Source: Bacillales bacterium
GTDB lineage: Bacteria; Bacillota; Bacilli; JARBTR01
DNA: 64,000 bases
Assembly (NCBI GenBank): GCA_031554215.1
Contig: JAVBKF010000119.1
Span: 32,612-96,611 of the forward strand
Direction: 5' to 3'
Position numbers and translations under genes: made by a program
The notes under the pieces: model-generated
What the model was told of the DNA's origin: nothing
The model's database searches: none
Seen by the model: only the letters and a program-made list of their open reading frames with translations
In this document: positions 4,136 to 59,614 of the stretch, one piece after another
Layout: every line of letters begins with the position of its first letter
How positions within the stretch are numbered: the first letter of the stretch is position 1

Positions 4136-4651
4136 ATGATGAAGGAATCAATTACCACTATTTTATCACAACAAGTGAATGCAGAGTACTATTCGGCGTA
4201 TTTGTATCTGGCAATGGCAACTGATTGTGACCGGAAGGGACTTAAAGGATTTTCACGCTGGTTATTTTTGCAGGCGCAAGAAGAGTTGTCGCATGGCACA
4301 AAGATTTATCAATATATTCTAGAAAGAGGCGGCACACCAACATTTTCAGATATTAAAGTAGCGCCAAAGACAGAATGGGATTCCTTAATCAGTCTTTTTG
4401 AAGAAGTCTATGCGCATGAGCAAAAGGTAACTGAAATGATTCATGAGATTGCTTCGCTATCAATGCAGGAAAAGGACCATTCGACGTATTCATTCAATCA
4501 ATGGTTCATTAATGAGCAGGTTGAAGAGGAAGCCAGTGCAGATGAAATCTTGCAAACACTCCGCTATGTAAAGGAAGACCCGGCATCTGTATTTCACTTG
4601 GATCGTGAGCTCGGTGTACGGACATTGACACCTGAACCGGAAGTAGAATAA
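4136..4651 (+). CDS. ftn: bacterial non-heme ferritin (Ftn, ferritin-like diiron domain)
   Basis: 171 aa with ferritin ferroxidase-centre residues (E..EELSHG...QE motif pattern). AAAGGAG RBS lies 8 nt upstream. Confidence 0.8.
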   Translation: MMKESITTILSQQVNAEYYSAYLYLAMATDCDRKGLKGFSRWLFLQAQEELSHGTKIYQYILERGGTPTFSDIKVAPKTEWDSLISLFEEVYAHEQKVTEMIHEIASLSMQEKDHSTYSFNQWFINEQVEEEASADEILQTLRYVKEDPASVFHLDRELGVRTLTPEPEVE

Positions 4652-4724
4652 CGATATTTTGTAGCGTAGCTTTTTATTGTAGGCGGCTGAGCTAGAAATC
4701 GGCCTGTGGAAACCCCAGTTCCCC

Positions 4725-4769
4725 AAAAAATGAAGAATCATCCAGATGGGATGTGATTCTTCATTTTTT
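4725..4769 (+). terminator. rho-independent terminator of the ferritin gene
   Basis: AAAAAATGAAGAATCA...TGATTCTTCA stem followed by TTTTTTG. Confidence 0.75.
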
Positions 4770-5399
4770 GTTTTGACAATTTAAAAGTGGGAACGATGTT
4801 GCTAAACAGCAAGGTACGGCAGTTTTTTGTGCATCTATGTCTATAATGTTATGCCTAAAAGGTATTTATTTGTTAAACGAATTATCCAGTGTCAGCAGAA
4901 TGAAGCTGATTGCGGCATTATTTTTTTGGTACTGGTTTATTTAACAACGTGAAAATGGTTACGTACCCCCGTTTTTAGGACATGCTCTTATGAGTGCCTT
5001 AACGTGCGAAGTACCGCGAACGAGTGGATCGATGCAGGTTATCCCACATCTGCGTAAATCATCGTTGTCACAAACAATCGCTACGTCCTAAAAGCGGTTG
5101 ATGATATTGTTTAGGATTCATTTCAATTACATAAGAATCATCGGGGATTAGCCCTGATCTCACGTCGTTTTTCAGTTAGAACCGTCAAATTTTTATAATT
5201 TGTCGCAGTTTCGGGTAACTTAACATTAGTTTATTTGAAATCTCTCTGTTGGTGGGAGCAGTGTAGTCGCAGGATGTTATTGACCGTTTCTTTTATCTTT
5301 CCTGTCTGCTTTCACTTGTCCAGCTGATTTGTGATGTACATTATGTTGGCCTTATCCATACTATTTTAAAAAGAGGCACAAGGCTATTTCGGAGGAAAA
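4770..5399 (+). promoter_or_regulatory. about 630 nt ORF-free leader upstream of the giant glucan-synthase-like gene, containing a 13-bp long-range helix (4969-4981 pairing with 5085-5097) that encloses about 100 nt; candidate cis-regulatory RNA
   Basis: No ORF of 60 aa or more on either strand. CCGTTTTTAGGAC pairs with GTCCTAAAAGCGG with one G-U wobble. A further hairpin ATCGGGGattagCCCTGAT lies at about 5148-5170. Confidence 0.3.
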
Positions 5400-8300
5400 A
5401 TGACATATTTCATAGAAAATTTGCGTGAGGATGCCCGAAAGTTGGCTTTAACTCGAATTAGTGGCAAGAAAAAGTTGTCGGTCAGGTTATTTTTGACGGA
5501 TTTTAATCAAGATATGGCTAGTCTTCATCAGTTCGCTGACACGCTCCAAGAAAATCCAGCGAGCTGTGGGCAATTAGCGGAAAATTGGCTCCTAGATAAC
5601 GGTGAATTTATTGATGAACAAGCATTTGAAGTGTCGACAAATTTAAGCAATGCGCTACTGGATAGATTGCCTTGTTTAGATTCTGGTGCGCTCCGAATTC
5701 AATCAATTGTCAGTGGTTATTTGACGTGTGTTGATGGCGTGATTAGCGATGAATCATTGATTGCTTATATCAATGCATATCAAGAAATATCGGCACTCAC
5801 GATTGCGGAGATTAGAACGATTCCATTAGTTCTCCGAGCGGCATTAATCCACCGTTTTGCTGAAATGATGCAGGAACTAAGGGTTCGTAAAGAAATCTGT
5901 CATGATGTCGATCAATTTATGGCACAGCTTGATACTCAGGCGTTATCTTCAGCGGTGATTAACGAGGCACTTGATCGTGCTGGACAGAAAGTGCCATTAT
6001 CAGGAGCCTGGATTGTTCATTTGATTAGTCATTTGCGTGAATTTGCAGATGATAATGAGATGGTCAACGAATGGCTAAGTTGTCGTTTTGAAAATCAAGG
6101 TGACCTGAACAAAATTGTTTCTTATGAGCATGACCTGCAGTCGAGTTATCAAATGGTCGCAGGCAATTTAATCACCAGTCTGCGTAAAAATGAGCGCCGG
6201 GCTTGGGATGATATTTTTTCCAACATCAGTGTTATTGATCGGATTTTTCATGATGAGCCAACTAGTGTTTACCGTGAGATGGATCAAGAAAGTCGTAATC
6301 AATTATTAAATAAAGTGGAACTTCTTGGGCAGAAGCTGTATGTGCCCGAGCGGCTGATTGCGGAACGAGTCGTTCAGCTTGCAAGTGATGAAGTGACAAA
6401 TGAAAAGATGCGTAAGCGCATGCCGAGAAGCTATTCTCGCCAAACGTTCATTGCTTATTATCTTTGCGAAGATAAGGGCGTTAAAATACTTGCTCGGTCA
6501 CTAAAGAATTGTTGTAATCCGAAAGCACCAGCACCAAATCTCACACCAAAGTCGGAAAAGAACTATTTCATCTATCTAACTGGCTTCACGGTTGTATTCG
6601 CACTGATGTTTACGCTATGGCTTAGCTACGGTAAAACACATTTAATTGCCGAGTGGCTACTGATTATTTCAGCTGCCTGCTTCTTAGCAGGTGAATGGAT
6701 GGTGACTTGGTTACACACCTCTATTGAACTGACGGTAAAACCAGAACCGTTGTTACGCTATGATTTTGCAAATGGTATTCCTGACGATGCGAAGACCTTA
6801 GTGACGATTCCTGTCATTTGGTCTACGAATGAGGAAGTATCCGAGACTGCTGAGCGGTTGGAACTACATTATCTCAGTTGTCGTGATGACCATATTTATT
6901 TTGCGTTGTTAGGCGATTTTGTTGATTCAGATCAAGAAGGAATGACGGAGAAAGATCGCCATTTATACGCATTCGCGAAGGAGACAATTGCCCAGTTAAA
7001 CGCCAAATATCCGAAGGAGAACGGTCATTTTTTTCATCTCTTTCAACGGATGCGGTCTCACAATGAACGTGATGGTATTTTCATGGGCTGGGAGCGCAAG
7101 CGAGGTAAGTTGATCGAATTTGTTGAGATGATTCATGGTAAACAGGATACTCATTTTCAGCAAGGGGAACTTAGCTCAGCAAACGAGTTGCCAAGTTATT
7201 TACACGATATTCGCTACATCATTACGCTCGATGCCGATACGGAGCTACCGATGGGTAATGCGCATCGGATGATTGCGTCAATGCATCTCCCGTTTAATCG
7301 TCCGCGCTTAAATGCGAAATGTTCGAGGGTAATAGAAGGTTATGCGATGATGCAGCCACGCGTTGCTGTTAGTTTAGAATCTTCACGGCAGTCAAAGCTG
7401 ACATCATTTTGGACGGATGCTGGGCTAGATCCCTATGCATTTGCCGCGGCAGATCCCTATCAGGATGCAGTCGGTCATGGGATTTTTACCGGAAAGGGAA
7501 TTTTTGAAATAGAGACGTTTGGTTTGTTGCTTAGTAATCGGTTTCCAGATAATCAGATACTAAGCCATGATTTACTGGAAGGTTCATTCCTGCGAGCTGG
7601 ATTTCTTTCTGATATTGAATTAATTGATGCACATCCGAATAAATTTAGTGCTTATCAAAAGCGGATGCACCGGTGGGTCCGCGGTGATTGGCAACTGGTT
7701 AAATGGTTGTTTCCCACTGTGCGTAATCGTGCCAATCAGAAGGAGAAGACGGAGCTAGCCGCGATTAGTCGTTGGCAAATTATTGAGAATTTACGGCGAA
7801 GTTTATTGCCGATTGCTTATTATCTATTACTGGTGATTGCGATATTTGTTTTTTCAGGGATGACGGGTATTTGGCTGAGTTTGATCTTCTTGTCTATGTC
7901 CTTGCCAATCCTAAAACAAATTAGCAGTATGTTTGAAGGTGGGCGCATGAGCAAAGGATTCGTCAATACGGTTCTGCAAGTGCTGATTAATTTTTGGATA
8001 CTCCCATTTCAGGCAGCTGTCGTTGTCCATGCGGTCAGTGTCAGTCTCTACCGTCAGTTAATTAGCAAGAAGCATTTACTCGAATGGACTAGTTCTTCTC
8101 ATATTGAAAAAATGCAACATCGTTCAGACCAAAGGACTCTGGAGGGAATAACTGGTGGTTATACGCTCATCATTCTCTTTAGCGTCTTAACATTCATCTA
8201 CCAGCCATTCATTCCGTTCGTTTTCTGTTTAGCGTTATGCCTTTTTTGGGCACTTGCGCCCCTTGGTATGCGCTACCTAGATCGACCGACCCCGCAGGAA

Positions 8301-11300
8301 GAACTAACGATTGCAGATGAGGACCGTGCGATATTGCTGTCCCTTGCGGAGGATATTTGGCGTTTCTATGAAGAATTCGCTGATGAAGAAAATCATTGGT
8401 TGCCACCCGATAATGTTCAATTCGATCCAGATAAGGGTGCTGCTAACCGGACTTCACCTACGAATATTGGTTATCTGTTTACGGCAATTTTGGCTGCTGA
8501 ACAATTTGGCTTTATTTCGATAACCGATGTTGTACAAAAGATTGAACGTGTGCTACAAACGCTCAAACAGATGCAGAAATGGAATGGTCATTTGTTTAAC
8601 TGGTATGACACGATTTCACTTACACCGCTTGCCCCGAGATATGTATCGACAGTTGATTCAGGTAACTTTGTTGCTAGTCTGATGGCGACGAAACAAGGGC
8701 TAGATGTACTCAGAGAAACAAAGGCGGAAGAAGCAACTGCTGAACGCTTAGCGCTACTAAGCGAAGCGTTGGAACAACTCATTTCCGCTACTAATTTTCG
8801 GGCACTTTACAATGAAAAGGCTAAATTATTTGTGCTTGGCTACAATGATGTTGCCAGTAGACATGATGATATCCTATATGATTTATTGGCCTCAGAGGCA
8901 AGGCAAACGAGCTTTGTGGCCATTGCGCTTGGCCAGGTTCCCGTGAGTCACTGGATGGCACTGGGAAGGTCAACGAAGCGGCTCGGAAATCATATGGCAC
9001 TACTTTCTTGGTCTGGAACAATGTTTGAATATTTAATGCCATGGCAGTTATTGCGGACATTTGCTGGTACAGTTTGGGAAAGCACCTATAAAGGCATTGT
9101 TGGACAGCAGATTGATTATGCACATGCGCAAGGTGTTCCTTTTGGGATATCGGAATCTGGTTACTACGGATTCGATTTTCAAATGAACTATCAATATTAT
9201 GCATTTGGCGTCCCCGATACGGGTTTTAAACGTGGGCTTGGAGATGAGCTTGTGTTAGCGCCTTATGCGACCATTATGGCGTTACCTTTTGCTTTGGAAG
9301 CGGGTCTACGAGACCTCGGGCGCATGGCGAAACTCGGTGCAAGAGGCAAATATGGCTTCTTTGAAGCAATTGACTTCACAAAGAAGCGTATGCCAGAAGA
9401 TGAAGATTATATGATTGTTAAAAGCTGTATGGCACACCATCAAGGAATGAGTTTGTTAACCCTCGTTAATTTATTGCATCAAAATAAGATGGTAGAATTG
9501 TTCCATCGTGATATGCGGGTGCGTTCAGCGGAGTTGTTACTGAAAGAGCGTATACCAACAAAAGCATCGAAAATTCACGAGCATGTCAGCCATGAAGAGA
9601 AGAAACAGACCCAGAAGAAAGCACAGCACCATTATAAGCGCCGCTATGAGAGTGCTGAAATGCCAGTTGATGTGAATATCCATTCCAATGGACGACTAAC
9701 TTCCCTTGTGACGACACAAGGTGCCGGGTTCTTACAATTTGATGGCGTGGCTATCACCAGATGGCGTGAACAAAGTCCGCTAAGTTGGGGGAATTTCCTT
9801 TACATCCGTGATGTAGACAGTGGTGAAACTTGTTCACCAACATTTGAACCTTGCCAAAAACCGGCTCGGAAAATGAGTACACAATTTGCACTTGGGCATT
9901 CAAGCTTCTCACAAGAATCAGATAGTCTGCAAACAACGATGGAAATTTGTATTTCGCCAGAAGCTGATGTTGAATTTCGGAAATTTACGATCACGAATCT
10001 GCATCATGAAGAAAGGGCGCTCGAGCTGACAACTTTTGCAGAGCTTGCGTTAGCACCTATGCAGGCAGATGAAGCCCATCAAGCTTTTAGTAAGCTGTTT
10101 ATTGAGACGGATTATGATGTCGGTCACAATTGTTTACTTGCAAGAAAACGACCGCGGCACCAACAGGAAAACGGTCTTTGGGCGTATCATACGATGGCGC
10201 TCATCTCAAATGAACAGTCTGCTACAGAAGTAGAACGCAGGCAGATGGAACATGAAACGGATCGTCACTGGTTCATTGGTAGGGGGTATTCTGGGGGACA
10301 CCCGAGGGGACTCTTGGAGCCGTTAAAAGGAACGACAGGTGCTGTAGTTGATCCAGCGTTTATTATGCGGAAGTCTTTGAACCTGCGGCCAAATGAAACG
10401 GCGACACTGATCATTTTGACTGGAGCGACTGACAGCCGGGCGGCGGCGCTAGAAGCTGTCCAGAAATATACTGATGCCGATCAGGTAGAAGCGGCTTTCC
10501 GTTTGTCTTGGACACGAGGGCAAATTGAGCTCCGCCATTTCAGATTGACACAACAAGAGATTGCAACGTTCCAACAGCTTGTTGGGAAAGTATTGTTCAC
10601 GAATCACACTTCTGAAGAACGTAGGCAAGCAATTGTTGCCAATAAACTTGGTCAGAAAAGCCTTTGGTCCATTGGGATTTCGGGCGATAGGCCAATTGTA
10701 TTAATCCGGATTCCTGACACATCGTCACTAACACTAGTGAAGAAATTACTGACTTGTCACGAGTATTTGCGGAACATGGGTCTTCGTTACTCATTCGTAT
10801 TTTTAAACGAAACAGAAGAAGGTTATCAACAAGATGTGCAGAATATGCTCAATCGTTTAGTTGAAAAAGCGGTTGAAGGGGAACAAAGTGACGCAGGACG
10901 GATTCATGTTGTCACGGCAAAGTTGTTAGATCCTGCAGTTAAAACATTGCTAGTTGCAATGGCTAGGATTACCTTTGAAGCCAATGGTCCGAGTCTAAAG
11001 TCTCAGCTTCATATTGGCAGAAAAAACCCAAGCAAATACCGGATGAAAAGCTGCACGGCAAATGCCAGCGCTAGAAAAGAAGCTGTATTAGCTAATCAAA
11101 CAGAAGCTGGATTTGGAGTTCCTGATCCGAAAGCGAAACCAGGTGGCCGCGGTTATTATCATGAAGGCGTAGCAGTTTCAGAAGCGAAACCGTTCGCTAC
11201 GCAAACCAAAATCGCAGCAATGAGTGAAAGTCAAGATGAAGCAAGCGAAACTGTCCACAATGGTAAAGACGAGCTCCTATTTTACAATGGCTATGGTGGA

Positions 11301-13775
11301 TTTACGGCAGATGGAACAGCGTACAAAATGATCCTTTCAAAAGAGCGTCAATTGCCGTTACCATGGATTAATGTACTTGCTAATCCGTATTTTGGTACAA
11401 TCACTTCTGAAAAGGCAACTGGTTATACATGGTGGCGAAATAGCCGTGAGTGCAAACTAACGCCGTGGTCAAACGACCCAACCCTTGATACACCTGGGGA
11501 GCGCCTAGAACTCATTGACCATGCTAGTGGCCAGACTTGGCGAATCGGAGCAGGTGATGTAGCATGCCAAGTCACTTACGGTAGGGGTACATCGGTTTAT
11601 ACACAATCAAACCAGCAATTAAGCCAAGAAATGACTGTTTTTGTCCCAATAGATGATCCAATCAAAATCATTCGACTTCGGGTAAAAAATGATGCAGAAA
11701 CTGCACGTAAACTATCCGTTACGTATGCTGCTGATTGGGTGCTAGGTGTAAATCCGCCCGGCAATATGTCCTTTGTTGTCACAGACTGGGATGAAGCTAG
11801 TCAAACTGTGTTTGCTAAGAATCATTTCCAAGATCATTTCCGTTCTGCTACTGCATTTCTTAAAGTAGTCGATGATTCGGGGCAGGTCACAGAGGTAGGC
11901 GCATCATCTCTCAGTGATCAGGCTGAGAAAATGGGTTCATCGCTACCGGACTGTAACGATGCAGCTCAGCAAAACGCGAAGCAGGGGGACATAGCAATGC
12001 ATCGCGGTGCTGATTCAAGTGATGAGCAAGTGGCTGACGCACAGCCTACAGCAGCTGAGCAGATGGAACCACAAGGCAGTAACCGTGGTAGCAAAGTAGC
12101 AACGACATTTACACTTGATGCTGGCGGGCAAAAAGACATTTATATTCTACTTGGCTGTACCAATGCAAAACATGTTGCTAAAGAACTTGTGACAAAATAT
12201 ACGGACCCTAGCCGCTGTGAATCTGCTTTTGTAGCACTACAGGCATTTTGGGAAAAGCTACTTGGACAGATAACAGTGAAGACCCCGAGCAAAGAAATGA
12301 ATGTGATGCTCAATAATTGGCTCATGTATCAAACGCTTGGTTGCCGGATGTGGGCACGAACTGCTTTCTACCAGGCGGGTGGGGCTTATGGTTTCCGTGA
12401 TCAATTGCAAGATTCGCTTGCGCTCCTGCATGTTCGTCCAGATTTGACGCGTGCACAAATTATCCTTCATGCTTCGCATCAATATATTGAAGGGGATGTC
12501 CAGCATTGGTGGCATGAGGAGACTGCACACGGTATCCGGACGCGGTTTTCCGATGATTTACACTGGCTACCGTATGCGGTACTTCGCTACCTTGAACATA
12601 CGGGTGATAGGACGATCTTGGAGGAAACTGCACCGTATTTAGAGAGTGCACCCCTTGAACCAGACAACCATGAACGGTATGAACCGACTGTAGTTTCAGA
12701 AGAAGTAGGCACGATTTACGAGCACTGTGTTCGTGCGCTAGAACGCGGAATGACGATGGGTGAACATGGACTACCGCTTATGGGCATCGGTGACTGGAAT
12801 GATGGGATGAGCCGGATTGGTGCTGAGGGACGCGGCGAAAGTGTTTGGCTTGGTTGGTTCTACGGTAGCATTTTGCAGCAGTTTGCGAATGTGTGTGAGC
12901 ACCATGGTGATAAAGCCCGAGCCGAGCGGTACCGCTCCACTGTGAAAGAATTAGAAAACCACTTGAATATTCATGCTTGGGATGGTGCTTGGTTCAGACG
13001 TGCTTTCCATGATCAAGGGGTTTGGCTTGGTGCTGAGGATAATAGTGAGTGCCGAATTGATGCTATTGCCCAATCTTGGTCAGTGCTATCGGGACTCGGT
13101 GCAGAGAATAAAACGCGAAAGGCGATGGCTTCATTTGATCGTGAGCTCGTTGACAGACGGCTGGGGCTCGCGAAGATTCTTACACCAGGCTTTGACAAAA
13201 TGGACCCAAGTCCGGGCTATATTCAAGGATACCCACCAGGTATTCGTGAAAACGGTGGGCAGTACTCACACGGTGTCGTTTGGAGTATACTTGCTTGGAC
13301 AAAGCTAGGCGAAGGCGATAAAGCCTTTGAATTGTTCAATATGATGAATCCGATTAACCATGCGAAAACCAGTGAAGAAGTCCTGCAATACCGTGGTGAA
13401 CCTTATGTAATGGCAGCGGATGTTTACACTTCGCTACCACACGAAGGTCAATCGGGCTGGACTTGGTATACAGGCGCATCTGGATGGATGTATCAAGCGG
13501 GGATTGAAGGGATTCTAGGTCTTACGAGGCGCGCTGATAAACTGCATATAAAACCATGCATTCCAGCGAGCTGGCCAGAATATGAGATGACCTATCGTTT
13601 TGGTGAAAGCATTTACCATTTCACAGTGAAAAACAAATCAGGAACCGCAGGAGATGTGCAAAAGCTGGTAATTGATGGTGTCGATGCACAGGTTACAAAT
13701 GTGAATTCACCACTTGGTGTTGCACTTGAACTGAGTGACGATGGAGCGACACATGAGATTGAAGTGGAATTGTGA
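5400..13775 (+). CDS. cyclic beta-1,2-glucan synthase-like giant protein: N-terminal cytoplasmic domain, TM segments, GT84-like glycosyltransferase, TM segments, alpha/alpha-toroid domain, GH94 phosphorylase domain
   Basis: 2791-aa uninterrupted ORF. TM helices lie at about aa 384-450 and 790-950. The GT region carries ITLDADTELP (DxD) and QKRMHRW (Q..RW). A glucoamylase-like PTNIGYLF region is present. The C-terminal region matches the GH94 catalytic domain (NWLMYQTLGCRMWARTAFYQAGGAYGFRDQLQD...). This is the same domain order as Cgs/NdvB/ChvB. Confidence 0.75.
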   Translation: MTYFIENLREDARKLALTRISGKKKLSVRLFLTDFNQDMASLHQFADTLQENPASCGQLAENWLLDNGEFIDEQAFEVSTNLSNALLDRLPCLDSGALRIQSIVSGYLTCVDGVISDESLIAYINAYQEISALTIAEIRTIPLVLRAALIHRFAEMMQELRVRKEICHDVDQFMAQLDTQALSSAVINEALDRAGQKVPLSGAWIVHLISHLREFADDNEMVNEWLSCRFENQGDLNKIVSYEHDLQSSYQMVAGNLITSLRKNERRAWDDIFSNISVIDRIFHDEPTSVYREMDQESRNQLLNKVELLGQKLYVPERLIAERVVQLASDEVTNEKMRKRMPRSYSRQTFIAYYLCEDKGVKILARSLKNCCNPKAPAPNLTPKSEKNYFIYLTGFTVVFALMFTLWLSYGKTHLIAEWLLIISAACFLAGEWMVTWLHTSIELTVKPEPLLRYDFANGIPDDAKTLVTIPVIWSTNEEVSETAERLELHYLSCRDDHIYFALLGDFVDSDQEGMTEKDRHLYAFAKETIAQLNAKYPKENGHFFHLFQRMRSHNERDGIFMGWERKRGKLIEFVEMIHGKQDTHFQQGELSSANELPSYLHDIRYIITLDADTELPMGNAHRMIASMHLPFNRPRLNAKCSRVIEGYAMMQPRVAVSLESSRQSKLTSFWTDAGLDPYAFAAADPYQDAVGHGIFTGKGIFEIETFGLLLSNRFPDNQILSHDLLEGSFLRAGFLSDIELIDAHPNKFSAYQKRMHRWVRGDWQLVKWLFPTVRNRANQKEKTELAAISRWQIIENLRRSLLPIAYYLLLVIAIFVFSGMTGIWLSLIFLSMSLPILKQISSMFEGGRMSKGFVNTVLQVLINFWILPFQAAVVVHAVSVSLYRQLISKKHLLEWTSSSHIEKMQHRSDQRTLEGITGGYTLIILFSVLTFIYQPFIPFVFCLALCLFWALAPLGMRYLDRPTPQEELTIADEDRAILLSLAEDIWRFYEEFADEENHWLPPDNVQFDPDKGAANRTSPTNIGYLFTAILAAEQFGFISITDVVQKIERVLQTLKQMQKWNGHLFNWYDTISLTPLAPRYVSTVDSGNFVASLMATKQGLDVLRETKAEEATAERLALLSEALEQLISATNFRALYNEKAKLFVLGYNDVASRHDDILYDLLASEARQTSFVAIALGQVPVSHWMALGRSTKRLGNHMALLSWSGTMFEYLMPWQLLRTFAGTVWESTYKGIVGQQIDYAHAQGVPFGISESGYYGFDFQMNYQYYAFGVPDTGFKRGLGDELVLAPYATIMALPFALEAGLRDLGRMAKLGARGKYGFFEAIDFTKKRMPEDEDYMIVKSCMAHHQGMSLLTLVNLLHQNKMVELFHRDMRVRSAELLLKERIPTKASKIHEHVSHEEKKQTQKKAQHHYKRRYESAEMPVDVNIHSNGRLTSLVTTQGAGFLQFDGVAITRWREQSPLSWGNFLYIRDVDSGETCSPTFEPCQKPARKMSTQFALGHSSFSQESDSLQTTMEICISPEADVEFRKFTITNLHHEERALELTTFAELALAPMQADEAHQAFSKLFIETDYDVGHNCLLARKRPRHQQENGLWAYHTMALISNEQSATEVERRQMEHETDRHWFIGRGYSGGHPRGLLEPLKGTTGAVVDPAFIMRKSLNLRPNETATLIILTGATDSRAAALEAVQKYTDADQVEAAFRLSWTRGQIELRHFRLTQQEIATFQQLVGKVLFTNHTSEERRQAIVANKLGQKSLWSIGISGDRPIVLIRIPDTSSLTLVKKLLTCHEYLRNMGLRYSFVFLNETEEGYQQDVQNMLNRLVEKAVEGEQSDAGRIHVVTAKLLDPAVKTLLVAMARITFEANGPSLKSQLHIGRKNPSKYRMKSCTANASARKEAVLANQTEAGFGVPDPKAKPGGRGYYHEGVAVSEAKPFATQTKIAAMSESQDEASETVHNGKDELLFYNGYGGFTADGTAYKMILSKERQLPLPWINVLANPYFGTITSEKATGYTWWRNSRECKLTPWSNDPTLDTPGERLELIDHASGQTWRIGAGDVACQVTYGRGTSVYTQSNQQLSQEMTVFVPIDDPIKIIRLRVKNDAETARKLSVTYAADWVLGVNPPGNMSFVVTDWDEASQTVFAKNHFQDHFRSATAFLKVVDDSGQVTEVGASSLSDQAEKMGSSLPDCNDAAQQNAKQGDIAMHRGADSSDEQVADAQPTAAEQMEPQGSNRGSKVATTFTLDAGGQKDIYILLGCTNAKHVAKELVTKYTDPSRCESAFVALQAFWEKLLGQITVKTPSKEMNVMLNNWLMYQTLGCRMWARTAFYQAGGAYGFRDQLQDSLALLHVRPDLTRAQIILHASHQYIEGDVQHWWHEETAHGIRTRFSDDLHWLPYAVLRYLEHTGDRTILEETAPYLESAPLEPDNHERYEPTVVSEEVGTIYEHCVRALERGMTMGEHGLPLMGIGDWNDGMSRIGAEGRGESVWLGWFYGSILQQFANVCEHHGDKARAERYRSTVKELENHLNIHAWDGAWFRRAFHDQGVWLGAEDNSECRIDAIAQSWSVLSGLGAENKTRKAMASFDRELVDRRLGLAKILTPGFDKMDPSPGYIQGYPPGIRENGGQYSHGVVWSILAWTKLGEGDKAFELFNMMNPINHAKTSEEVLQYRGEPYVMAADVYTSLPHEGQSGWTWYTGASGWMYQAGIEGILGLTRRADKLHIKPCIPASWPEYEMTYRFGESIYHFTVKNKSGTAGDVQKLVIDGVDAQVTNVNSPLGVALELSDDGATHEIEVEL

Positions 13776-13924
13776 TTTAGGTTGAAAGTGCTTGATTAAA
13801 GTTGAGAGCAGGTTTTTGATTATCATTTGAGATGACGATGCTGAAACGTTTTGTGAAACGCGTTCTTATTGCATGTTCAATCATCGGCTCATGGTCTGAA
13901 GGATTTTTGCCGAAAAAAGGCGCA

Positions 13925-13970
13925 AAGGACAAGGGAGGCTTATCGCTAGCTCCCTTGTCCTATTGTTTTA
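13925..13970 (+). terminator. rho-independent terminator of the glucan-synthase-like gene
   Basis: GGACAAGGGAG...CTCCCTTGTCC stem followed by TATTGTTTT. Confidence 0.75.
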
Positions 13971-24465: not shown

Positions 24466-26223
24466 TTAAGTACCTAGTTGTTGAATCTGGAATAACCGAT
24501 AATAAGCACCTTGCTTTTCCATCAGTTCGTGGTGTGTGCCAATCTCCGTGATTTCACCATGCTCAATCATCGCAATTCGGTCGGCATGGGTAATCGTTGA
24601 CAGTCTGTGTGCAACGATAAAAGTCGTCCGATTCTTGGAGAGTTTAATAATTGATTCCTGAATCAAATGCTCGCTTTCTAAATCAAGTGCTGAGGTAGCC
24701 TCGTCCAAAATTAATATCGGTGGGTTTTTCAAGAAAACGCGGGCAATTGAAATCCGTTGTTTCTGTCCGCCCGATAACTTGACGCCACGTTCGCCGACGA
24801 GTGTCGCGTAGCCTTCTGGTAACGCAGCAATGAATGCTTCCGCATTGGCCTGTTTAACGGCTGCTTCTACTTCTGCAAAACTAGCCTCAGGCTTACCAAT
24901 CAAAATATTGGAATGGACGGAGTCGCTGAACAAAATACTATCTTGAAACACAACACCTATATTATCCCGTAATGAGTGAATCGTTACATCGCGAATATCT
25001 TGTCCATCCAGTAGAATGCTACCGCCCGAAATATCATAGAACCGGGGGAGTAGTCCGACTAGAGAGGACTTTCCGCCACCACTCATCCCAACTAAGGCAA
25101 TCGTTTCGCCACGTTTGACATCGAGATTAATATTTTTTAGCGCATAACGATCATCATCGTAATACGAGAAGTAGACATTTTTAAAGGAAATATCCCCATG
25201 AACGGCCGTGCAATCTTTGGCACCTTCCCGGTCATCAATATCGTACTTTTCATCAAACAGTTCAAAGACTCGGTCCATTGAAGCAAATGATTGTGTCAAC
25301 GTGGTTGATGAATTGACTAGACGACGTAGTGGATCGTACAGACGGTCGATATAAGCAATAAATGCCACCATCGTACCGAGTGATAACTGACCATTAATGA
25401 CTTGAAAACTACAATAAAAAATAACCACAAGTGGTGCGATGTCTGTGATCGTATTGACGATTGCAAATGATTTGGCGTTCCAACGCGTTTGATCAAGTGC
25501 TTTCTCCATGAAATTGACATTAGTCTTATCAAAATTCTTCTGTTCATGCGCTTCAATAGCAAAACTCTTGATGACAGATACACCTTGAATTTTCTCATGA
25601 AGATACCCCTGCATCTCGGCCAGTGCCTGTGACCGGCGTTTCGTCAGGGTCCGCAGTCTTCCAAAAAAATAGCGAACCGAAATGGCGTATAGTGGCAATA
25701 ATATGAGTGAAATCATTGTCAGTTTGACATTGAGAGACAGCATAATAAGGATGACAAAGAATATAGTAGCGATATCAAGCCACAAATTCATTAGACCAGT
25801 GATCACAAAATCCTTCGTTAATTCCACATCATTAATCATCCGTGAAATGACTTCACCAACTTTAGCATTGGCATAGTACTTAAAGCTCAGTTTCTGTAAA
25901 TGCGAATAAAGTTTTGTTCGTATATCTACTAAGATTCTTGTTGCGGTCCATTGGGCGAAATACTGCCTGAAATACTCAACGGGTGGACGGATAACCATGT
26001 AGATGATAAACATTAGCCCCATAATCAGAAAGAGCTGATGAAATTTCTCATCTTGCGAAAGCTGACCATTCCCAATGATATCATCAATAATATATTTGAG
26101 CATAAGCGGCATGACTAAAGGAATAGCAAACTTAATCAATCCGATAAAAATCGTGCCGACAATGCGCCATTTATACGGTTTTACAAATTTTAAATAACGT
26201 TTAACTGAATCCAAACACATCAC
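24466..26223 (-). CDS. ygaD: ABC transporter fused permease/ATP-binding protein (type-I exporter, YgaD-like)
   Basis: Six-TM N-terminal domain followed by an NBD with Walker [10 protein letters not shown], signature [13 protein letters not shown] and Walker [13 protein letters not shown]. It is adjacent to a ygaC-like gene, as in B. subtilis. Confidence 0.85.
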
Positions 26224-29430: not shown

Positions 29431-30774
29431 TTAATAGTTTAGGTATGGCATTGGATTGATACAGTTTGAATGGTTTGCTTGAAATCCGCCTCGCATCAAT
29501 TCAAAGTGTACATGCTGCCCATGCGACTGACCAGTATTACCCATGATACCAATTTGCTGTCCTTGTGAAACGGTATCTCCAGTGTTGACGTAGCGATTCT
29601 GCATATGTGCATATAAAGTGGAGTACGTTTGACCATTATAGCGATGGGCAATAATGACGCAATTTCCATATGAATTCGAGTAGTAGGAGCTACTAACGAC
29701 TCCGTCTGCTGCCGCATAAATTGGCACGTCTGATTTGTTAGCGATATCAACACCATAATGGAAACCATCCTCACGCGAACCAAAACCGGACGTGATTGTA
29801 CCGGCAGCTGGGTTGCTTAGAAGATTACCACTTGCTGGAGGAGGGGTATAACCACCACCGCTAGAACCACTAGATCCGCCAGAACTGCCAGAACCACTGG
29901 ATCCACTAGACCCGCCAGAACCACCATTATTATTATTATTATTATTATTATTGGTTTCTGCCGCCGCTGCTTCTGCCGCTTCTGCTGCCGCCGCCGCTTC
30001 TGCCGCTGCGGCCTCTTCTTGTGCAATCAACTGTGCAATAGCGGCCTCCTGACCTTCAAGAATCACATCTTCTTCTTCTTGATTGACAATATAACTCTCG
30101 ATTTCATGCTCCTGATCTGTTAATGTAACAAGTGTTTCTTCCTTTTGCTCTTTCTGAACCCCGAGTGTTGCCTCGAGACTTTGAAATTCAGCATTCAGTG
30201 ATGCTAACTCTTCCTTGTTTTTTTCAAGATCTGCTTTGGCACTTGTTAATTTCTTTTGGTCAGCAACTTGCGCTTCAATAATGTCTTGATCGGCAGTCAC
30301 TAACGCTGAAACTGCATCCATCCGCTCAACAAATTCTCCGAATGAACTGGCACCAAAGATGACTTCAGCATATCTCGATTCCCAACCGTTTTCCTGTACA
30401 AGAACGAGGCGTTCACGGATGATTTGATCCCGTGCGACTATGTTCTCTTGTAACGTGGCGATGTCAGATTCCAGTGAGACGATTTCATCATTTACCTGAT
30501 TAATTTGATCAGTTGTTGTTCTAATCTTCTCAGACGTATCAGAAATTTGTTGGTCAAGTTGCTCAATGTTGACTTGCGTGTCACCTTTTTCTTTTTTTAC
30601 ACCATCAAGTTCAGCTTGGCTCTGGTCAATGTTCTGGTCAATTTGAGATTGTTGCTGATCGATGTTTTCTTGCTGATTTTCATACTCTGAAACACTTGTA
30701 GCTAGAACGTGGTTCGGTAAGAAAATAAGCAATAGACAAATCATCGAAACGAGTAAGCTTCTTGCTTTTTTCAT
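29431..30774 (-). CDS. coiled-coil M23 (LytM-domain) peptidoglycan endopeptidase, EnvC-like, with N9 / Gly-Ser / Ala-Glu low-complexity linker
   Basis: Signal peptide, long coiled coil, then an M23 domain with intact HxxxD (HYGVD) and HxH (HVHFE) motifs. It lies immediately downstream of ftsX. Confidence 0.85.
   Translation of the reverse strand: MKKARSLLVSMICLLLIFLPNHVLATSVSEYENQQENIDQQQSQIDQNIDQSQAELDGVKKEKGDTQVNIEQLDQQISDTSEKIRTTTDQINQVNDEIVSLESDIATLQENIVARDQIIRERLVLVQENGWESRYAEVIFGASSFGEFVERMDAVSALVTADQDIIEAQVADQKKLTSAKADLEKNKEELASLNAEFQSLEATLGVQKEQKEETLVTLTDQEHEIESYIVNQEEEDVILEGQEAAIAQLIAQEEAAAAEAAAAAEAAEAAAAETNNNNNNNNNGGSGGSSGSSGSGSSGGSSGSSGGGYTPPPASGNLLSNPAAGTITSGFGSREDGFHYGVDIANKSDVPIYAAADGVVSSSYYSNSYGNCVIIAHRYNGQTYSTLYAHMQNRYVNTGDTVSQGQQIGIMGNTGQSHGQHVHFELMRGGFQANHSNCINPMPYLNY
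29926..29952. repeat. (ATT)9 trinucleotide microsatellite (encodes Asn9 on the minus strand) inside the M23 peptidase gene, next to GCC/GCT-rich Ala-coding repeats
   Basis: Nine perfect ATT units at 29926-29952. Flanking GS-rich and Ala/Glu-rich coding repeats run to about 30015. Confidence 0.9.
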
Positions 30775-30788
30775 TGTCCGTCTCCTTT

Positions 30789-31697
30789 CTATATTTTTAT
30801 ATACTTTCTAATCGATAACAAACTAGCGATTACACCAATAACGGTACCAATTGTAACGATTGAGAGTGCTACATAAATAATAAATGGATTTGGTGGTAGT
30901 GTTTTGAAAAATTCAAGCCCTGCGCGGCTTAGAATTTCATGGCGATCGACATAGATATAGCTAAGACTAATTGTTGCGATTGGAATAATCGATCCAAGTA
31001 TACCGAGCCAAATGCCTTCGAGGAAGAATGGCCATCTGATAAATGCATTTGTAGCACCTACTAGCCTCATGATTTCGATTTCACGTTTCCTAGAGAGAAT
31101 GGTGACACGAATCGTATTAACAATTAGGAAAACAGCAACTAATGCGAGTGCGACAATCAAAACGAAACCGATTGTTCGTCCCCATTTTGTAAATTCAAAC
31201 ATCTGCTCAACGTAATCTTCTCCATAATTTATATCGTCAACATTATTGAGCTCTTCTATTTTTGGTATAACTTCACTCGTTTGTTGTGGGTCTTTCAATT
31301 TGACAACGAAAACGTCATGCAACGGGTTATTGGCTTTGTATTGCTGATACAATTCTTCGCTTTGGTCAAGCCCTAGGCTTTCCTTGTGCATTTCCAGTTC
31401 CTCATCCTTCGATGAGAATTTAATAGAATCTACTTCAGCTATGTTGTCTAGCTCTTTTTTTAATTGTTGTTCATCCTCGGGGGTTGCAGTGACGTCAACA
31501 TGGACCCTGATTTCTGCACTCTTTTCAAACTGTTTTGTAATATAGCTTGTATTGGCGCCAATGACTACGAATACACCAAGCATTAGCAGTGTAACGGTTA
31601 CCGCACCGACGGAAGCAACAGTCATCCACCCATTACGAGCAAGGTTGAGCAAGCTTTCTTTGAAGTGATAGGCAAGGTCTTTACCCTTCATAGCCAT
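30789..31697 (-). CDS. ftsX: cell-division ABC transporter permease-like protein FtsX
   Basis: N-terminal TM, large extracellular loop, three C-terminal TM. The N-terminus aligns with B. subtilis FtsX (NGWMT.AS..AVTVTLL). The start overlaps the ftsE stop. Confidence 0.85.
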   Translation of the reverse strand: MAMKGKDLAYHFKESLLNLARNGWMTVASVGAVTVTLLMLGVFVVIGANTSYITKQFEKSAEIRVHVDVTATPEDEQQLKKELDNIAEVDSIKFSSKDEELEMHKESLGLDQSEELYQQYKANNPLHDVFVVKLKDPQQTSEVIPKIEELNNVDDINYGEDYVEQMFEFTKWGRTIGFVLIVALALVAVFLIVNTIRVTILSRKREIEIMRLVGATNAFIRWPFFLEGIWLGILGSIIPIATISLSYIYVDRHEILSRAGLEFFKTLPPNPFIIYVALSIVTIGTVIGVIASLLSIRKYIKI

Positions 31698-32367
31698 ATT
31701 CACCTCCTTCTTGGTCGCGGACAATTTCTCCACCTTCTATTGCTAGTACACGATGGCGGAAATTATTGACTAAGTCTTTGTTATGTGTAGCCATCACAAT
31801 CGTCGTTCCCATACGATTGATTTCTTCAAAAAGGTGAAGGATATCAACAGATGTTTCAGGGTCTAGGTTACCTGTAGGCTCGTCTGCAATAACAATCTTA
31901 GGGTTCCGTACAATTGAACGAGCAATCGAGATACGTTGTTGTTCGCCTCCAGACACTTCATAAGGTTTCATCCGGATTTTGTGTTTTAACCCAACTAGGT
32001 CAAGGACATCCATTACACGCTTCTTTTGCTTACTGCCTGTTGTACCAGTTACTTGCAAAGCATAAGTAATATTCTCGTATACGTTGAGTTTTGGTAGAAG
32101 CTTAAAGTCTTGGAATATCACTCCGACTTTTCTCCGGAGAATTGGAATCTTGCTATTCTTGTAACTTGAGACATCGACTCCGTCAATAATCACTGAGCCA
32201 GTTGTTGGTTTTTCTTCACGATACATTAATTTAATAAAGGTTGATTTACCCGCACCACTCGGTCCGACGATATAAACAAACTCTCCAGCTTCAATGTTCA
32301 CATCAACGCAATTGATTGCACTGACCCCATTGGGGTAGGTTTTGTATACATTTTTCATTTCAATCAT
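31681..32367 (-). CDS. ftsE: cell-division ATP-binding protein FtsE
   Basis: 228 aa with Walker A GPSGAGKST, signature VSGGEQQRISIAR and Walker B VIADEPTGNLD. Confidence 0.9.
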   Translation of the reverse strand: MIEMKNVYKTYPNGVSAINCVDVNIEAGEFVYIVGPSGAGKSTFIKLMYREEKPTTGSVIIDGVDVSSYKNSKIPILRRKVGVIFQDFKLLPKLNVYENITYALQVTGTTGSKQKKRVMDVLDLVGLKHKIRMKPYEVSGGEQQRISIARSIVRNPKIVIADEPTGNLDPETSVDILHLFEEINRMGTTIVMATHNKDLVNNFRHRVLAIEGGEIVRDQEGGEYGYEG

Positions 32368-32693
32368 ATTTTTATAGGCACCTTTCTATTTTTCAGCGTT
32401 GTATGGTCTATTATAATCGCAAGTGAAAGTGCCAGCTTCAAAAGACTGAAAGCCAAATAAAGTATAGGGCGCACTTTACTAATTTTCTAGGCGAGACACT
32501 TTTGTTATCTTATCATTATAGCACCTTAGCATCTGGGTGGGCAGGTTTTTTTGTGGGAATAATTTCTGATTGGTTGACCTGAAAAAAACAAGCACATTGC
32601 TGTATGTACTTGTCTTTTTCAGCTTTCATCAACTGAGCAGGCTAGTCTATATTTGCCAATTATCAACCTGATTTCGTCAATGAACCAAAATTT

Positions 32694-33869
32694 TTAGTAA
32701 TTTAACCAAGGAGCAGGATCAAAGCAGTTTGCATGACCATCTTGCCATCCACCGGTCATCAACTCGAAATGAAGGTGCTGTCCAAATGATTGACCAGTAT
32801 TGCCCATAATGCCGATCTGTTGCCCTTGCGTAACTACCTGACCATCTTGAACAAAGCGTGCTTGCATATGAGCATATAAAGTTGAATACGTTTGCCCATT
32901 GTAAGAGTGTGAAATAATGACGCAGTTTCCGTATGACGGAGAGTAATACGATTTAGCAACAACGCCACTACCAGCGGCATAAATCGGAACGTCCGCTCCG
33001 TTAGCAATGTCCATGCCTGGATGAAAATCTGATCCACGATTGCCAAATGGTGAAGTCACAGTACCCATCGTAGGATTAACAAGTGGGCTACCATCAATTG
33101 GCATTGGTGGTGCACCGTTGCTTCCGGCCTGAGCTAGTTGTGCCATGGATTTTTCCTGCGCCGCCAAAATCTCCTCTTGCTCTTTTTGATCAAGAATGTG
33201 CCCTTCTAGTTGGGCTTCCTGTGCTGAAAGTGAAGCAAAAAGTTGTTCTTTTTGTGCTTTTTGAACTTGAAGATCAGCAGATAGTTGTGTATACGCTGCA
33301 CTTAAATTAACCAGTTCTGCCATTTGGTTTTCAAGCTCTTTTTGTGATTCTTCCAGTTTCTTTTGGTCATTCATTTGGGCCTCAATAATATCTTGGTCAG
33401 CGCTAACGAGTGATGAGACAGCGTCCATTCTTTCAATAAATTGCCCGAAAGATGCTGCTCCGAAAAGAACTTCTGCATATCTTGATTCCCAGCCGTTCTC
33501 TTGTACTAGCACAAGCCGCTCCCTGATAATCTGATCACGTTCTACTATTTTCTTCTGTAACTCAGTTATTTCAATTTCTAAACTAGCAATATTTTGATTG
33601 ACGATGTTAATCTTCTCTTCTGTTTCTCTAATCTTAGCAGCTGTTTCACTTACTTTCATATCCAGTTCTTTGATTTGTGCATCTGTTTCTGCTTTAGATT
33701 GTTTCACTGCATCTAGCTGTGCCTGACTTTGGTTAATATCGTCTTGTACTGTTTGTTGTTGCTCATCTATAGTTGCTTCTGCAAGTGCAGTGGGCATCTG
33801 CCCGGTTGGTAGCAAAAGTAAAGACAGGCATGTAGCAGAAACAATTAACTGTTTTTTTATTTTAGTCAT
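32694..33869 (-). CDS. coiled-coil M23 (LytM-domain) peptidoglycan endopeptidase, paralogue of 29431-30774
   Basis: Signal peptide, coiled coil, and an M23 domain with HxxxD (HPGMD) and HxH (HLHFE). The C-terminal ~130 aa are near-identical to the other paralogue. Confidence 0.85.
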   Translation of the reverse strand: MTKIKKQLIVSATCLSLLLLPTGQMPTALAEATIDEQQQTVQDDINQSQAQLDAVKQSKAETDAQIKELDMKVSETAAKIRETEEKINIVNQNIASLEIEITELQKKIVERDQIIRERLVLVQENGWESRYAEVLFGAASFGQFIERMDAVSSLVSADQDIIEAQMNDQKKLEESQKELENQMAELVNLSAAYTQLSADLQVQKAQKEQLFASLSAQEAQLEGHILDQKEQEEILAAQEKSMAQLAQAGSNGAPPMPIDGSPLVNPTMGTVTSPFGNRGSDFHPGMDIANGADVPIYAAGSGVVAKSYYSPSYGNCVIISHSYNGQTYSTLYAHMQARFVQDGQVVTQGQQIGIMGNTGQSFGQHLHFELMTGGWQDGHANCFDPAPWLNY

Positions 33870-56951: not shown

Positions 56952-58067
56952 CTATCTCAAGTTTTCTGGATTCAGACAACTGAGTTCAGGGAGGACAAAG
57001 TGTCCGTCTTTACGAATGAGGACATCGTCGAACCAGATTTCTCCCCCGCCCCACTCAGGGCGCTGAATACTCACTAAATCCCAATGGATAGCAGAATGAT
57101 TTCCATTCGATGCTGCCGCGTAGCATGAGCCTGGGGTAAAGTGAAAACTTCCATCAATTTTTTCATCAAAAAGAATATCTTGCATGGGGTTTAATATGTA
57201 AGGATTAACGCCTATTGCGAATTCGCCAACATAACGTGCGCCTTCATCGGTGTCAAACACGTTGTTCATACGCTCGGTGTCATTTGAAGTGGCCTCGATA
57301 ATCTGCCCATCTTTAAAAGTCAGTTTGATTTGCTCATAAGTGAATCCTTGGTATGGTGATGCGCAATTATAACGGATCACCCCGTTGACGGAATCACGCA
57401 CAGGTGCAGTATAAACTTCGCCATCAGGGATGTTTCGCAGTCCACAGCATTTGACAGCTGGAATATCCTTGATGGAGAAAGTCAAATCCGTTCCTGGTCC
57501 AACTAGGTGAACGCGGTCAGTCCTGTTCATCAGGTTGACGAGTTGTTCCATTGATTCAGCCATATGCTGATAGTCTAAGTTACAAACATTGAAATAGAAA
57601 TCCTCGAATGCCTCTGTGCTCATCTTTGCTAACTGTGCCATTGAACCATTTGGGTAACGAAGGATGACCCATTTTTTCTTTAAACGATGGTTTTTGTGCA
57701 CCTCTTGTAGAATTGTTTGCTCATAAATCTTTGTTTTTTCCGCAGGAATGTCTGAAAGTTCATTGATGTTAAATCCAGAGCGAACCCCGATATAAGCATC
57801 CATTTCCTTCATCAAATTAGCTTCATATGCTGCCATCGTCTCAAAATGTTTGGTTGTCGCACCTTTACGAAGTGCTCGTTCAACCCGCGCATCTTTCACG
57901 CTAACAAATGGCTGTCCACCAGCATTATACGCTTCCTCAATTAATGCTGTGACAAGCTCTAACTCAAATGAGCCGTTATTTTCGATAAACACCTTTTCTC
58001 CCTTTTGCAAGTGGACTGAATAGTTAATTAAGTTTTTTGCTAGTTGTTGCACTCTTGAGTCTCTCAA
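56952..58067 (-). CDS. M29-family aminopeptidase (AmpS / aminopeptidase T-like), paralogue 1 of 3
   Basis: 371 aa with M29 motifs (GPGTDLTFSI, DTDEGARYVGEFAIG, LFDEKIDGSFHFTPG). Confidence 0.8.
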   Translation of the reverse strand: MRDSRVQQLAKNLINYSVHLQKGEKVFIENNGSFELELVTALIEEAYNAGGQPFVSVKDARVERALRKGATTKHFETMAAYEANLMKEMDAYIGVRSGFNINELSDIPAEKTKIYEQTILQEVHKNHRLKKKWVILRYPNGSMAQLAKMSTEAFEDFYFNVCNLDYQHMAESMEQLVNLMNRTDRVHLVGPGTDLTFSIKDIPAVKCCGLRNIPDGEVYTAPVRDSVNGVIRYNCASPYQGFTYEQIKLTFKDGQIIEATSNDTERMNNVFDTDEGARYVGEFAIGVNPYILNPMQDILFDEKIDGSFHFTPGSCYAAASNGNHSAIHWDLVSIQRPEWGGGEIWFDDVLIRKDGHFVLPELSCLNPENLR

Positions 58068-58216
58068 AACGAATCTCTCCTTTGTTGTGTGTTTGGTTAC
58101 TAGCGGGTTAAGATTGCTTCAGCGTGGGGCAGGATTTGGTTTCATCTTTCACTTTTCAGCTTTAGGCTAACAGTCATCCAGTTTAACTAAATATCAGGAC
58201 GGTAAGCTGACGGATA

Positions 58217-58255
58217 AAAGCACTTACCCATTGCCTGAAATAGGTAAGTGCTTTT
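58217..58255. terminator. rho-independent terminator between M29 paralogues 1 and 2
   Basis: AAAAGCACTTACC...GGTAAGTGCTTTT. Confidence 0.7.
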
Positions 58256-58269
58256 GTCCGCTTTAAACA

Positions 58270-59385: not shown

Positions 59386-59474
59386 TTTACTGTCTCCTTC
59401 TGATAAAGGTTGAACCCTTTGATAAACTACATTCTACACCATATAAGTCAAAAAGTTAAATGATACAGGTTGAG

Positions 59475-59500
59475 AAAAAACAGACCGCTCTACGTGCGGT
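59475..59500 (-). terminator. rho-independent terminator downstream of M29 paralogue 3
   Basis: On the minus strand: AACCGCacgtagaGCGGT followed by a T6 run. Confidence 0.55.
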
Positions 59501-59614
59501 TAGAGTAACCTTGTACATAGGTGCTCAGAGTCAAGGCATTCGCGTGAAAGGTGCTTGACCAGTTCTATATAAGTGATGCTTATTCATTTGACTGAATAAA
59601 AAATCGCCGGATGA

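Follow-up and report, generated by a model that had tools for sequence, protein, structure and literature searches.

Work on cyclic β-1,2-glucans has dealt almost exclusively with Proteobacteria (Brucella, Agrobacterium and the rhizobia, among others), in which these sugars act in the periplasm as osmoprotectants and in interactions with the host. A 64,000-nucleotide stretch of a Bacillales bacterium (contig JAVBKF010000119.1; hereafter the window, meaning the whole stretch that was analysed) raises the question of whether the enzyme that makes them is also encoded, and at work, in a monoderm spore-former. In the window, an open reading frame (ORF) that we call cgs runs from an ATG at position 5400 to position 13775 of the forward strand and, according to the ORF list and its translation, codes for 2791 amino acids with zero internal stops. 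A first-pass annotation had described it as one uninterrupted 8.4-kb ORF, with coordinates and length that proved exact, and had likened its domain order to that of Cgs/NdvB/ChvB. Our analysis indicates that the cgs product is very probably a cyclic β-1,2-glucan synthase that works like the Agrobacterium enzyme.

The closest characterised system is Cgs of Agrobacterium tumefaciens (AtuCgs, or ChvB; structures 8rf0 and 8rf9; Sedzicki et al. 2024, PMC10901819), together with Brucella Cgs and Sinorhizobium NdvB. A phmmer comparison of the cgs protein with 8rf9/8rf0 scored 1571 bits in three collinear segments covering query residues 50–2753, of which the first pairs residues 50–1099 with chain residues 61–1098 and the second pairs 1111–1867 with 1226–1981. 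The two proteins resemble each other in length (2791 amino acids here, 2818 residues in the 8rf0 chain), in being encoded by stand-alone genes, and in the order of their parts, namely an N-terminal domain (NTD), two transmembrane (TM) helices, the GT84 glycosyltransferase (GT) domain, four further TM helices, the cyclase (CY), GP1, a Rossmann-fold-like (RFL) subdomain (residues 1847–2012 in native AtuCgs; PMC10901819), GP2 and GP3. A simple hydropathy scan places two plus four TM helices around the GT region, six in total. The Pfam hits follow the same order, with Glycoamylase (PF10091) at residues 1163–1361, two GH94 supersandwich stretches (PF06165, best at 1425–1675) and the GH94 catalytic domain (PF17167) at 2283–2707 (E 3e-119); together with the collinear full-length match, they bear out the domain order of the first-pass annotation. 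A scan of the whole protein against NCBIfam returned no family. There was likewise no Pfam match to GT84, for which neither Pfam nor NCBIfam has a model, so membership in this family was shown via alignment to the solved structure. Thus both the GH94 and the GT regions score against the Cgs family, the latter through the 8rf9 alignment.

Conservation extends to the residues on which the chemistry depends in the solved enzymes. We collected the functionally tested residues from PMC10901819 and PMC10834661 and mapped them via sub-region alignments and a script; all residues that are mutationally or structurally implicated in AtuCgs, the primer tyrosine included, have their counterpart in the cgs protein. 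In GT84, D506, R566, D611/D613, D724, R758-W759 and R761 are identical to Atu D527, R586, D624/D626, D739, R773-W774 and R776, the roles of which include UDP-coordinating Asp residues, the DxD motif, a catalytic base Asp and the RW motif (PMC10901819); the position of the catalytic base is D724 by sequence alignment to Atu D739. Of the two motifs that had been pointed out beforehand, the DxD is D611-A-D613, and the Q..RW is present as R758-W759, but with Q753 at a spacing of Q-x4-RW rather than the canonical QxxRW. Y679, in the sequence GLDPYAF, aligns with Atu Y694 in GIDPYVF (the IF1-homology loop), the autoglucosylated primer tyrosine of AtuCgs (PMC10901819), and is the predicted primer tyrosine here.

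The cyclase region finds its best sequence match in another member of the Bacillota, the isolated cyclase domain of Thermoanaerobacter italicus (TiCGS-Cy, GH189, 8wy1; Tanaka et al. 2024, PMC10834661), with a phmmer E-value of 2.7e-121 and 409 bits versus 346 for AtuCgs. E1166, E1210, E1252, H1346 and H1347 correspond to Ti E1356, E1400, E1442, H1536 and H1537, and so the E/E catalytic pair, the supporting Glu and the His-His of TiCGS (roles from PMC10834661) are all in place; by alignment, E1166 would be the acid/base and E1252 the nucleophile. D1086/E1166 likewise match Atu D1104/E1300. In the GH94 part, D2334 (FRDQLQD) and D2468 (GDWNDG) correspond to Atu D2393 and D2528, D2468 being the catalytic acid by alignment, and GP2-GP3 also carries H2624. 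Predicted structures point the same way. The AlphaFold2 (AF2) model of CY (pLDDT 86, pTM 0.88) had 8wy1 (TMq 0.86) and 8rf0 (TMq 0.87, root-mean-square deviation 2.4 Å) as its best folds in Foldseek, followed by β-1,2-glucanases, while the model of GP2-GP3 (pTM 0.82) retrieved 8rf0 at the top (TMq 0.79) and then GH94 cellobiose phosphorylases.

The gene is also maintained. Compared with an 81%-identical relative (locus L081) by the Nei-Gojobori method, cgs has an approximate ratio of non-synonymous to synonymous substitution rates (dN/dS) of 0.065 overall and of 0.02–0.08 in the seven folded regions with a computable ratio (NTD 0.068, GT84 0.06, RFL 0.023), dS being too saturated for the calculation in TM1-2, CY and GP2. 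RFL has the lowest value among the computable regions and shares 93% of its amino acids with the relative. Since dN/dS is only ~0.065 against the 81% relative, cgs is by this measure a working gene under purifying selection and not a decaying one.

These homologues are not isolated cases. A protein search returned an identical protein, the 81% relative and a 57% relative, and then more than 100 clusters at 45–55% identity, where most of the Bacillota clusters aligned full-length and all had the same Pfam set. Their sources include Paenibacillus (many species), Bacillus, Neobacillus, Evansella, Effusibacillus, Thermoactinomycetaceae, Cohnella, relatives of Desulfotomaculum, Sporomusa, Pelosinus and others. 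Among the 120 clusters with the highest scores, identity never falls below 45%, and wherever a source is named it belongs to Bacillota. Scanning one genome per species yielded at least 595 cgs loci, the 34 best all from Bacillota, with Acidobacteriota, Gemmatimonadota and Planctomycetota first appearing below them at ~35% identity; the GT84 core alone retrieved 2,051 representatives (50% clusters) at E ≤ 1e-30. JGI already labels a number of these proteins from Bacillota ‘cyclic beta-1,2-glucan synthetase’, and one is ‘ndvB [Bacillales bacterium]’ at NCBI. The complete synthase is common in Bacillota genomes, and the cgs product is a new, as yet uncharacterised representative of this well-defined family, from which it departs in architecture by small changes particular to its lineage.

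That cgs came in lately by horizontal transfer from Proteobacteria, or is a remnant in decay, would be in keeping with the first discovery of the family in Proteobacteria and with the G+C content of the 3′ half of cgs, which at 0.46–0.50 is somewhat above that of its flanks (~0.40). This reading is effectively refuted by the best homologues, which are from Bacillota wherever a source is named (AtuCgs is only 33–38% identical across the CY and GP parts), by the conserved synteny (the adjacency of a ferritin gene and cgs, together with a promoter-like motif, is kept down to the 57%-identical relative), and by the dN/dS of 0.065 in an ORF where we found no frameshift and no stop, and which is thus not two or more genes split by sequencing errors. 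We give it next to no credence.

The prevalence of the synthase in Bacillota contrasts with its place in the literature. The first-pass annotation had considered these enzymes classically proteobacterial and seldom reported in aerobic spore-forming Firmicutes, which is a fair account of the experimental work but not of the genomes, given more than 100 Bacillota clusters and at least 595 loci. Our literature search found cyclic glucan synthases (CGS) of Firmicutes only as rows of CAZyme tables and in the work on the single T. italicus domain, and Gram-positives go unmentioned in a preprint on α-1,6-cyclised glucan synthases. A 2025 review even calls T. italicus Gram-negative (PMC11842490, section 11), a sign that the field has given no thought to CGS in monoderm bacteria.

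Could the protein be a phosphorylase instead? Stand-alone GH94 phosphorylases (of cellobiose, chitobiose, cellobionic acid and 1,2-β-oligoglucan) have the same fold as the C-terminal 840 amino acids of the cgs product (TMq 0.68–0.78) and the catalytic Asp in common with it, but they are soluble proteins of ~800–1100 amino acids without GT84, TM helices or cyclase. Here GH94 is the C-terminal third of a 2791-amino-acid membrane protein with GT84 and GH189, which rules out this identity, and all of the closest homologues have the GT domain, so that they are not phosphorylase fusions lacking it. A less simple version would have the enzyme acting mainly in degradation, as a membrane-anchored GH94/GH189 protein that phosphorolyses or rearranges imported β-1,2-glucans next to a vestigial GT. 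Gram-positives such as Listeria do catabolise β-1,2-glucooligosaccharides via a GH94 phosphorylase (PMC11842490), and the homologues often bear database names such as ‘cellobiose phosphorylase’ or ‘GH36-type glycosyl hydrolase domain-containing protein’, although these are automatic annotations from the GH94 part only. GT84, for its part, is anything but vestigial in its sequence, as its catalytic residues are complete and its primer tyrosine is kept, at a dN/dS of 0.06. Furthermore, when the flanking ORFs within 7 kb of cgs were clustered across 46 Bacillota loci, no sugar ABC importer, β-glucosidase or glucanase was found adjoining cgs, neither here nor in the 45 other loci. We consider a mainly degradative function highly improbable.

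Within this conserved frame, the enzyme of the window departs from its relatives at three sites, which we compared across 18 Bacillota homologues and the two solved enzymes (AtuCgs and TiCGS). The first of these had been overlooked by the first-pass annotation. At query residues 1093–1105, where AtuCgs has ~127 residues (of which a 4-helix protrusion of ~120–127 amino acids is lacking here) and TiCGS has ~157, the conserved halves of the cyclase domain are only ~5 residues apart and are joined in the AF2 model by a plain hairpin of helices. The protrusion is wholly absent in P0001, P0002, P0003, P0005 and P0006, which make up the clade of the window, whereas other Bacillota homologues retain a variable remnant of 6–90 amino acids. 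In AtuCgs it forms a back-to-back dimer contact, and the role of the dimer is not known even in Agrobacterium (PMC10901819). The protrusion is a trait of both characterised members and no catalytic requirement.

The other two sites are low-complexity insertions, which had been placed by the first-pass annotation at about residues 1870–1920 and 2170–2250, within the GH94 domain or next to it; both exist, with the limits refined in Table 1, but neither lies inside the GH94 catalytic barrel. Insert 1 is the linker between RFL and GP2. This linker is ~50 amino acids long in most Bacillota homologues but 106 in the cgs protein (~48 longer than in AtuCgs), 108 in P0002, 128 in P0003, 115 in P0033 (P. 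chitinolyticus) and 74 in P0109 (Bacillus sp. OV166). The expanded sequences are unrelated among lineages, and the linker has grown repeatedly and independently in several of them. Insert 1 consists of small or polar residues to 74%, with a dN/dS of approximately 0.31 and 40% identity to the 81% relative. Insert 2, a loop of the GP2 supersandwich, was found among the compared homologues only in P0001 and P0002. It is ~30 amino acids longer than the corresponding loop of AtuCgs, and it replaces a motif, W-T-x-DR-x-EF-x-G-RNG...LSG-TG...CGA-Q-K, that is kept in the 17 other Bacillota homologues compared and has a related stretch in AtuCgs, TSRREFIGRFGSAQAPQG; the FIGR-type motif is lost here. 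The loop is predicted to be disordered (AF2 pLDDT 24–33 over residues 2167–2227), and with an approximate dN/dS of 0.79 and 22% identity to the 81% relative, while its length is retained, it evolves almost neutrally. Both inserts are fast-evolving. Apart from these traits, the uncharacterised Bacillota homologues, with 45–57% full-length identity, the same Pfam set and genes that mostly stand alone, differ from the cgs product in retaining both the protrusion remnant and the GP2 motif, insert 2 being shared with the 81% relative only.

Because the protrusion is lost and the GP2 motif replaced, the product could differ from that of AtuCgs in size or in how much of it is cyclic and how much linear. 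It is conceivable that enzymes of this clade, while belonging to the same family, make linear β-1,2-glucan or rings of unusual size owing to a remodelled chain-measuring surface and the lost dimer contact. The inserts do flank GP2, and the RFL/GP2/GP3 surface binds glucan and has been proposed to determine ring size (PMC10901819). On the other hand, the cyclase and the phosphorylase have lost none of their catalytic residues, on which purifying selection is strong, and the near-neutral evolution of both inserts, together with the predicted disorder of insert 2, makes them look like passive linkers and not like newly formed binding surfaces. We hold such a change of product to be unlikely.

From the likeness to AtuCgs we infer the substrate, product, ring size and physiological role of a classical cyclic β-1,2-glucan synthase, the working of which would be as follows. 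A six-helix membrane anchor would hold a large assembly line on the cytoplasmic side, where GT84 would glucosylate its own tyrosine Y679 and then extend this primer from UDP-glucose. The growing chain would reach the RFL/GP surface, and the C-terminal GH94 domain would trim it with phosphate. GH189 would then close the ring by retaining transglycosylation, with E1252 as nucleophile and E1166 as acid/base, releasing a ring of ~17–25 glucoses and regenerating the primer. The role of the glucan would most likely be protection against osmotic or general stress, and it may stay in the cytoplasm or leave the cell through a transporter encoded elsewhere.

Several observations weigh against this assignment. 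The only assayed enzyme from Bacillota is the isolated cyclase domain of T. italicus and not a full-length one (PMC10834661), and the placement of the GT region in GT84 relies, as a reading of the sequence, on the PDB alignment only. The clade of the window lacks the 4-helix protrusion that both characterised enzymes have, and in the window protein and its 81% relative a conserved GP2 motif has been swapped for a disordered loop. The saturation of dS (~2) makes all dN/dS values approximate. As for the role, a monoderm cell has no periplasm, the site of the classical osmoprotective function, and in contrast to the Agrobacterium system we found no Cgt/NdvA-type (cgt/chvA/ndvA) exporter and no Cgm-type modifying enzyme in the 64-kb window. 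The earlier suggestion that the glucan could be made in a Gram-positive envelope stays conjectural, as all catalytic domains of the solved AtuCgs are cytoplasmic (PMC10901819). We nevertheless favour a cyclic β-1,2-glucan synthase of the Agrobacterium kind, the parts of which are listed with their coordinates in Table 1.

Table 1 Coordinates of cgs, its domains and its flanking signals in the window.
Feature	Residues	Position	Strand	Evidence
Whole cgs product		5400..13775	+	ORF and translation; full-length phmmer match to AtuCgs 8rf9/8rf0
N-terminal cytoplasmic scaffold domain	1-385	5400..6554	+	aligned with AtuCgs NTD in phmmer segment 1; dN/dS 0.068
TM helices 1-2	388-438	6561..6713	+	Kyte-Doolittle window-19 hydropathy ≥1.6
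GT84 glycosyltransferase domain	441-795	6720..7784	+	residue-by-residue alignment to 8rf9
TM helices 3-6	798-960	7791..8279	+	hydropathy and alignment to AtuCgs TM region
Cyclase (CY, GH189) α/α-barrel	963-1420	8286..9659	+	phmmer to TiCGS-Cy 8wy1 and AtuCgs; AF2/Foldseek
GP1, first GH94 supersandwich	~1421-1700	9660..10499	+	PF06165; aligned with AtuCgs in phmmer segment 2
Rossmann-fold-like (RFL) subdomain	~1701-1867	10500..11000	+	inside phmmer segment 2
Insert 1, polar RFL-to-GP2 linker	1868-1951	11001..11252	+	homologue comparison, dN/dS, composition
GP2-GP3 (second supersandwich, GH94 catalytic barrel, C-terminal β domain)	1952-2791	11253..13772	+	PF17167, 8rf9 alignment, AF2
Insert 2, acidic loop, predicted disordered	~2161-2237	11880..12110	+	homologue comparison, pLDDT, dN/dS
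Promoter-like motif TTATAA-N14-GGGTAA		5193..5218	+	same motif and spacing upstream of cgs in L081, L082 and L083
Upstream terminator hairpin		4724..4770	.	-22.7 kcal/mol, z -5.18, 0/200 shuffles as stable
Downstream intrinsic terminator of cgs		13922..13966	+	-25.5 kcal/mol, z -4.54, 0/200 shuffles as stable, then UAUUGUUUU

The gene is transcriptionally isolated between two real terminator hairpins (z -5.2 and -4.5), just as had been described from the sequence at first sight. The upstream hairpin most likely marks the end of the preceding ferritin gene, looks bidirectional because of the A-run on its 5′ side and the U-run on its 3′ side, and is followed by 625 nucleotides of non-coding DNA up to the cgs ATG, which has a GGAGG ribosome-binding site 6 nucleotides before it. 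At the other end, the 140 nucleotides from the cgs stop codon to the terminator fold no better than their shuffles (z -0.5).

The non-coding stretch before cgs varies in length, from 749 nucleotides in the window to 387 in L081 and 130 in L082, and within it the promoter-like motif of Table 1 lies at approximately -217 to -192 from the ATG in L081 and at -59 to -34 in L082 and L083. In its extended form the motif reads TTATAA-N14-GGG[T/C]AACTTA, with a perfect TATAAT at 5194–5199. In 38 further Bacillota loci the 500 nucleotides 5′ of cgs do not contain it, and we thus regard it as clade-specific rather than as the site of a family-wide regulator. The motif resembles a sigma-B general-stress promoter (GTTTAA-N12-15-GGGTAT), and we infer a promoter function for it from the sequence; alternatively, TATAAT may be the -10 box of a sigma-A promoter and the GGGYAACTTA block an operator. 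Between the ferritin terminator and the motif, ~420 nucleotides (4776–5195) have no counterpart in the 81% relative, no Rfam match and no credible ORF; neither blastn nor tblastx matched them to other parts of the window or to the loci retrieved for comparison. The long leader is not explained by a riboswitch, since Rfam at E ≤ 1 gave only chance-level matches on the terminator hairpin, and its small ORFs include none longer than 41 amino acids and none that is conserved. In contrast to the saturated synonymous sites of the gene, the ~90 nucleotides before the ATG (5310–5399) are near-identical to those of the 81% relative and may constitute a conserved 5′ untranslated element.

Upstream of cgs, the window encodes a glutathionylspermidine-synthase-like protein, a K+ channel, a MerR regulator, a glutathione peroxidase and a ferritin, and downstream a Liv-type binding protein; the names of the peroxidase, the ferritin and the binding protein are backed by the Pfam record of the 81% relative, while the others are readings of the translation, and no neighbour is glucan-related. 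The ferritin gene lies directly 5′ of cgs on the same strand (window 4136–4651 (+); L081 1357–1875; L082 9365–9871) and adjoins cgs in four of four loci (the window, L081, L082 and L083), with the glutathione peroxidase gene just before it in both the window and L081. Given the ferritin and glutathione peroxidase neighbours, a stress-linked role of cgs is plausible.

Across the 46 Bacillota loci, the flanking ORFs contained no recurring exporter, acyl- or succinyl-transferase or glucanase family. Standing alone is thus a family-wide property of cgs in Bacillota, and the self-contained unit proposed by the first-pass annotation agrees with the lack of linked partner genes here and in the 45 other loci. 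In six of the 46 loci, the window not among them, the gene directly 3′ of cgs (e.g., L016 18180–19175) is GalU/GtaB-like, a putative UTP-glucose-1-phosphate uridylyltransferase recognised by eye from its N-terminal motif; it would supply UDP-glucose and so fit this sugar as the presumed substrate. The only exporter with ABC_membrane and ABC_tran domains in the 64 kb is a half-size protein at 24466–26223 (-). We rejected it as a dedicated Cgt/NdvA partner since it is a multidrug exporter of the Sav1866 type, a very close orthologue of Sav1866 at 781 bits; the 60 best of its 317 PDB matches include no chain named Cgt.

The rest of the window comprises ftsEX with PcsB-like hydrolases, ctpB, recX, uvrBA, murG, lgt, ftsK/spoIIIE, murC and a liv ABC system. 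These Bacillales core genes, and a UvrB that is ~80% identical to those of Neobacillus, Bacillus, Metabacillus and Cytobacillus (86–94% to metagenomic proteins), support the Bacillales-type chromosome recognised beforehand. Three features were observed besides. Three tandem paralogous genes for M29 (thermophilic-type) aminopeptidases of 370–371 amino acids each occupy 56952–60727 (-). At 29431–33869 (-), ftsX and a 228-amino-acid ORF (31681–32367), which by its position is probably ftsE, lie between two genes for PcsB-like coiled-coil/M23 peptidoglycan hydrolases, with a CtpB-like S41 protease beside them, in what is a duplicated divisome-hydrolase arrangement. Finally, Rfam at the gathering threshold gave no match over all 64 kb; neither a tRNA nor a T-box nor a riboswitch turned up, a somewhat unusual outcome for this much Bacillales chromosome.

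Taking the clade-specific traits together, one may speculate that a small, uncultured Bacillales clade, represented by the window and its 81% and 54–57% relatives, has a streamlined, monomeric Cgs with an altered length-measuring surface that gives unusual rings or linear glucan, and that this enzyme, expressed from a sigma-B-like stress promoter beside ferritin and glutathione peroxidase genes, provides a monoderm-specific stress protectant that is cytoplasmic or wall-associated and not periplasmic. We put this forward as a long shot. The enzyme of the window is by itself not special enough to change the picture, although as a compact natural variant, without the dimer protrusion and with disordered linkers, it could serve structure-function or production work. 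The wider implication lies in the family: many bacteria that lack a periplasm encode the complete synthase and keep it under selection, with no dedicated exporter linked to it in the loci examined, and what the glucan does in monoderm spore-formers is a question for the whole Bacillota branch rather than for one locus.

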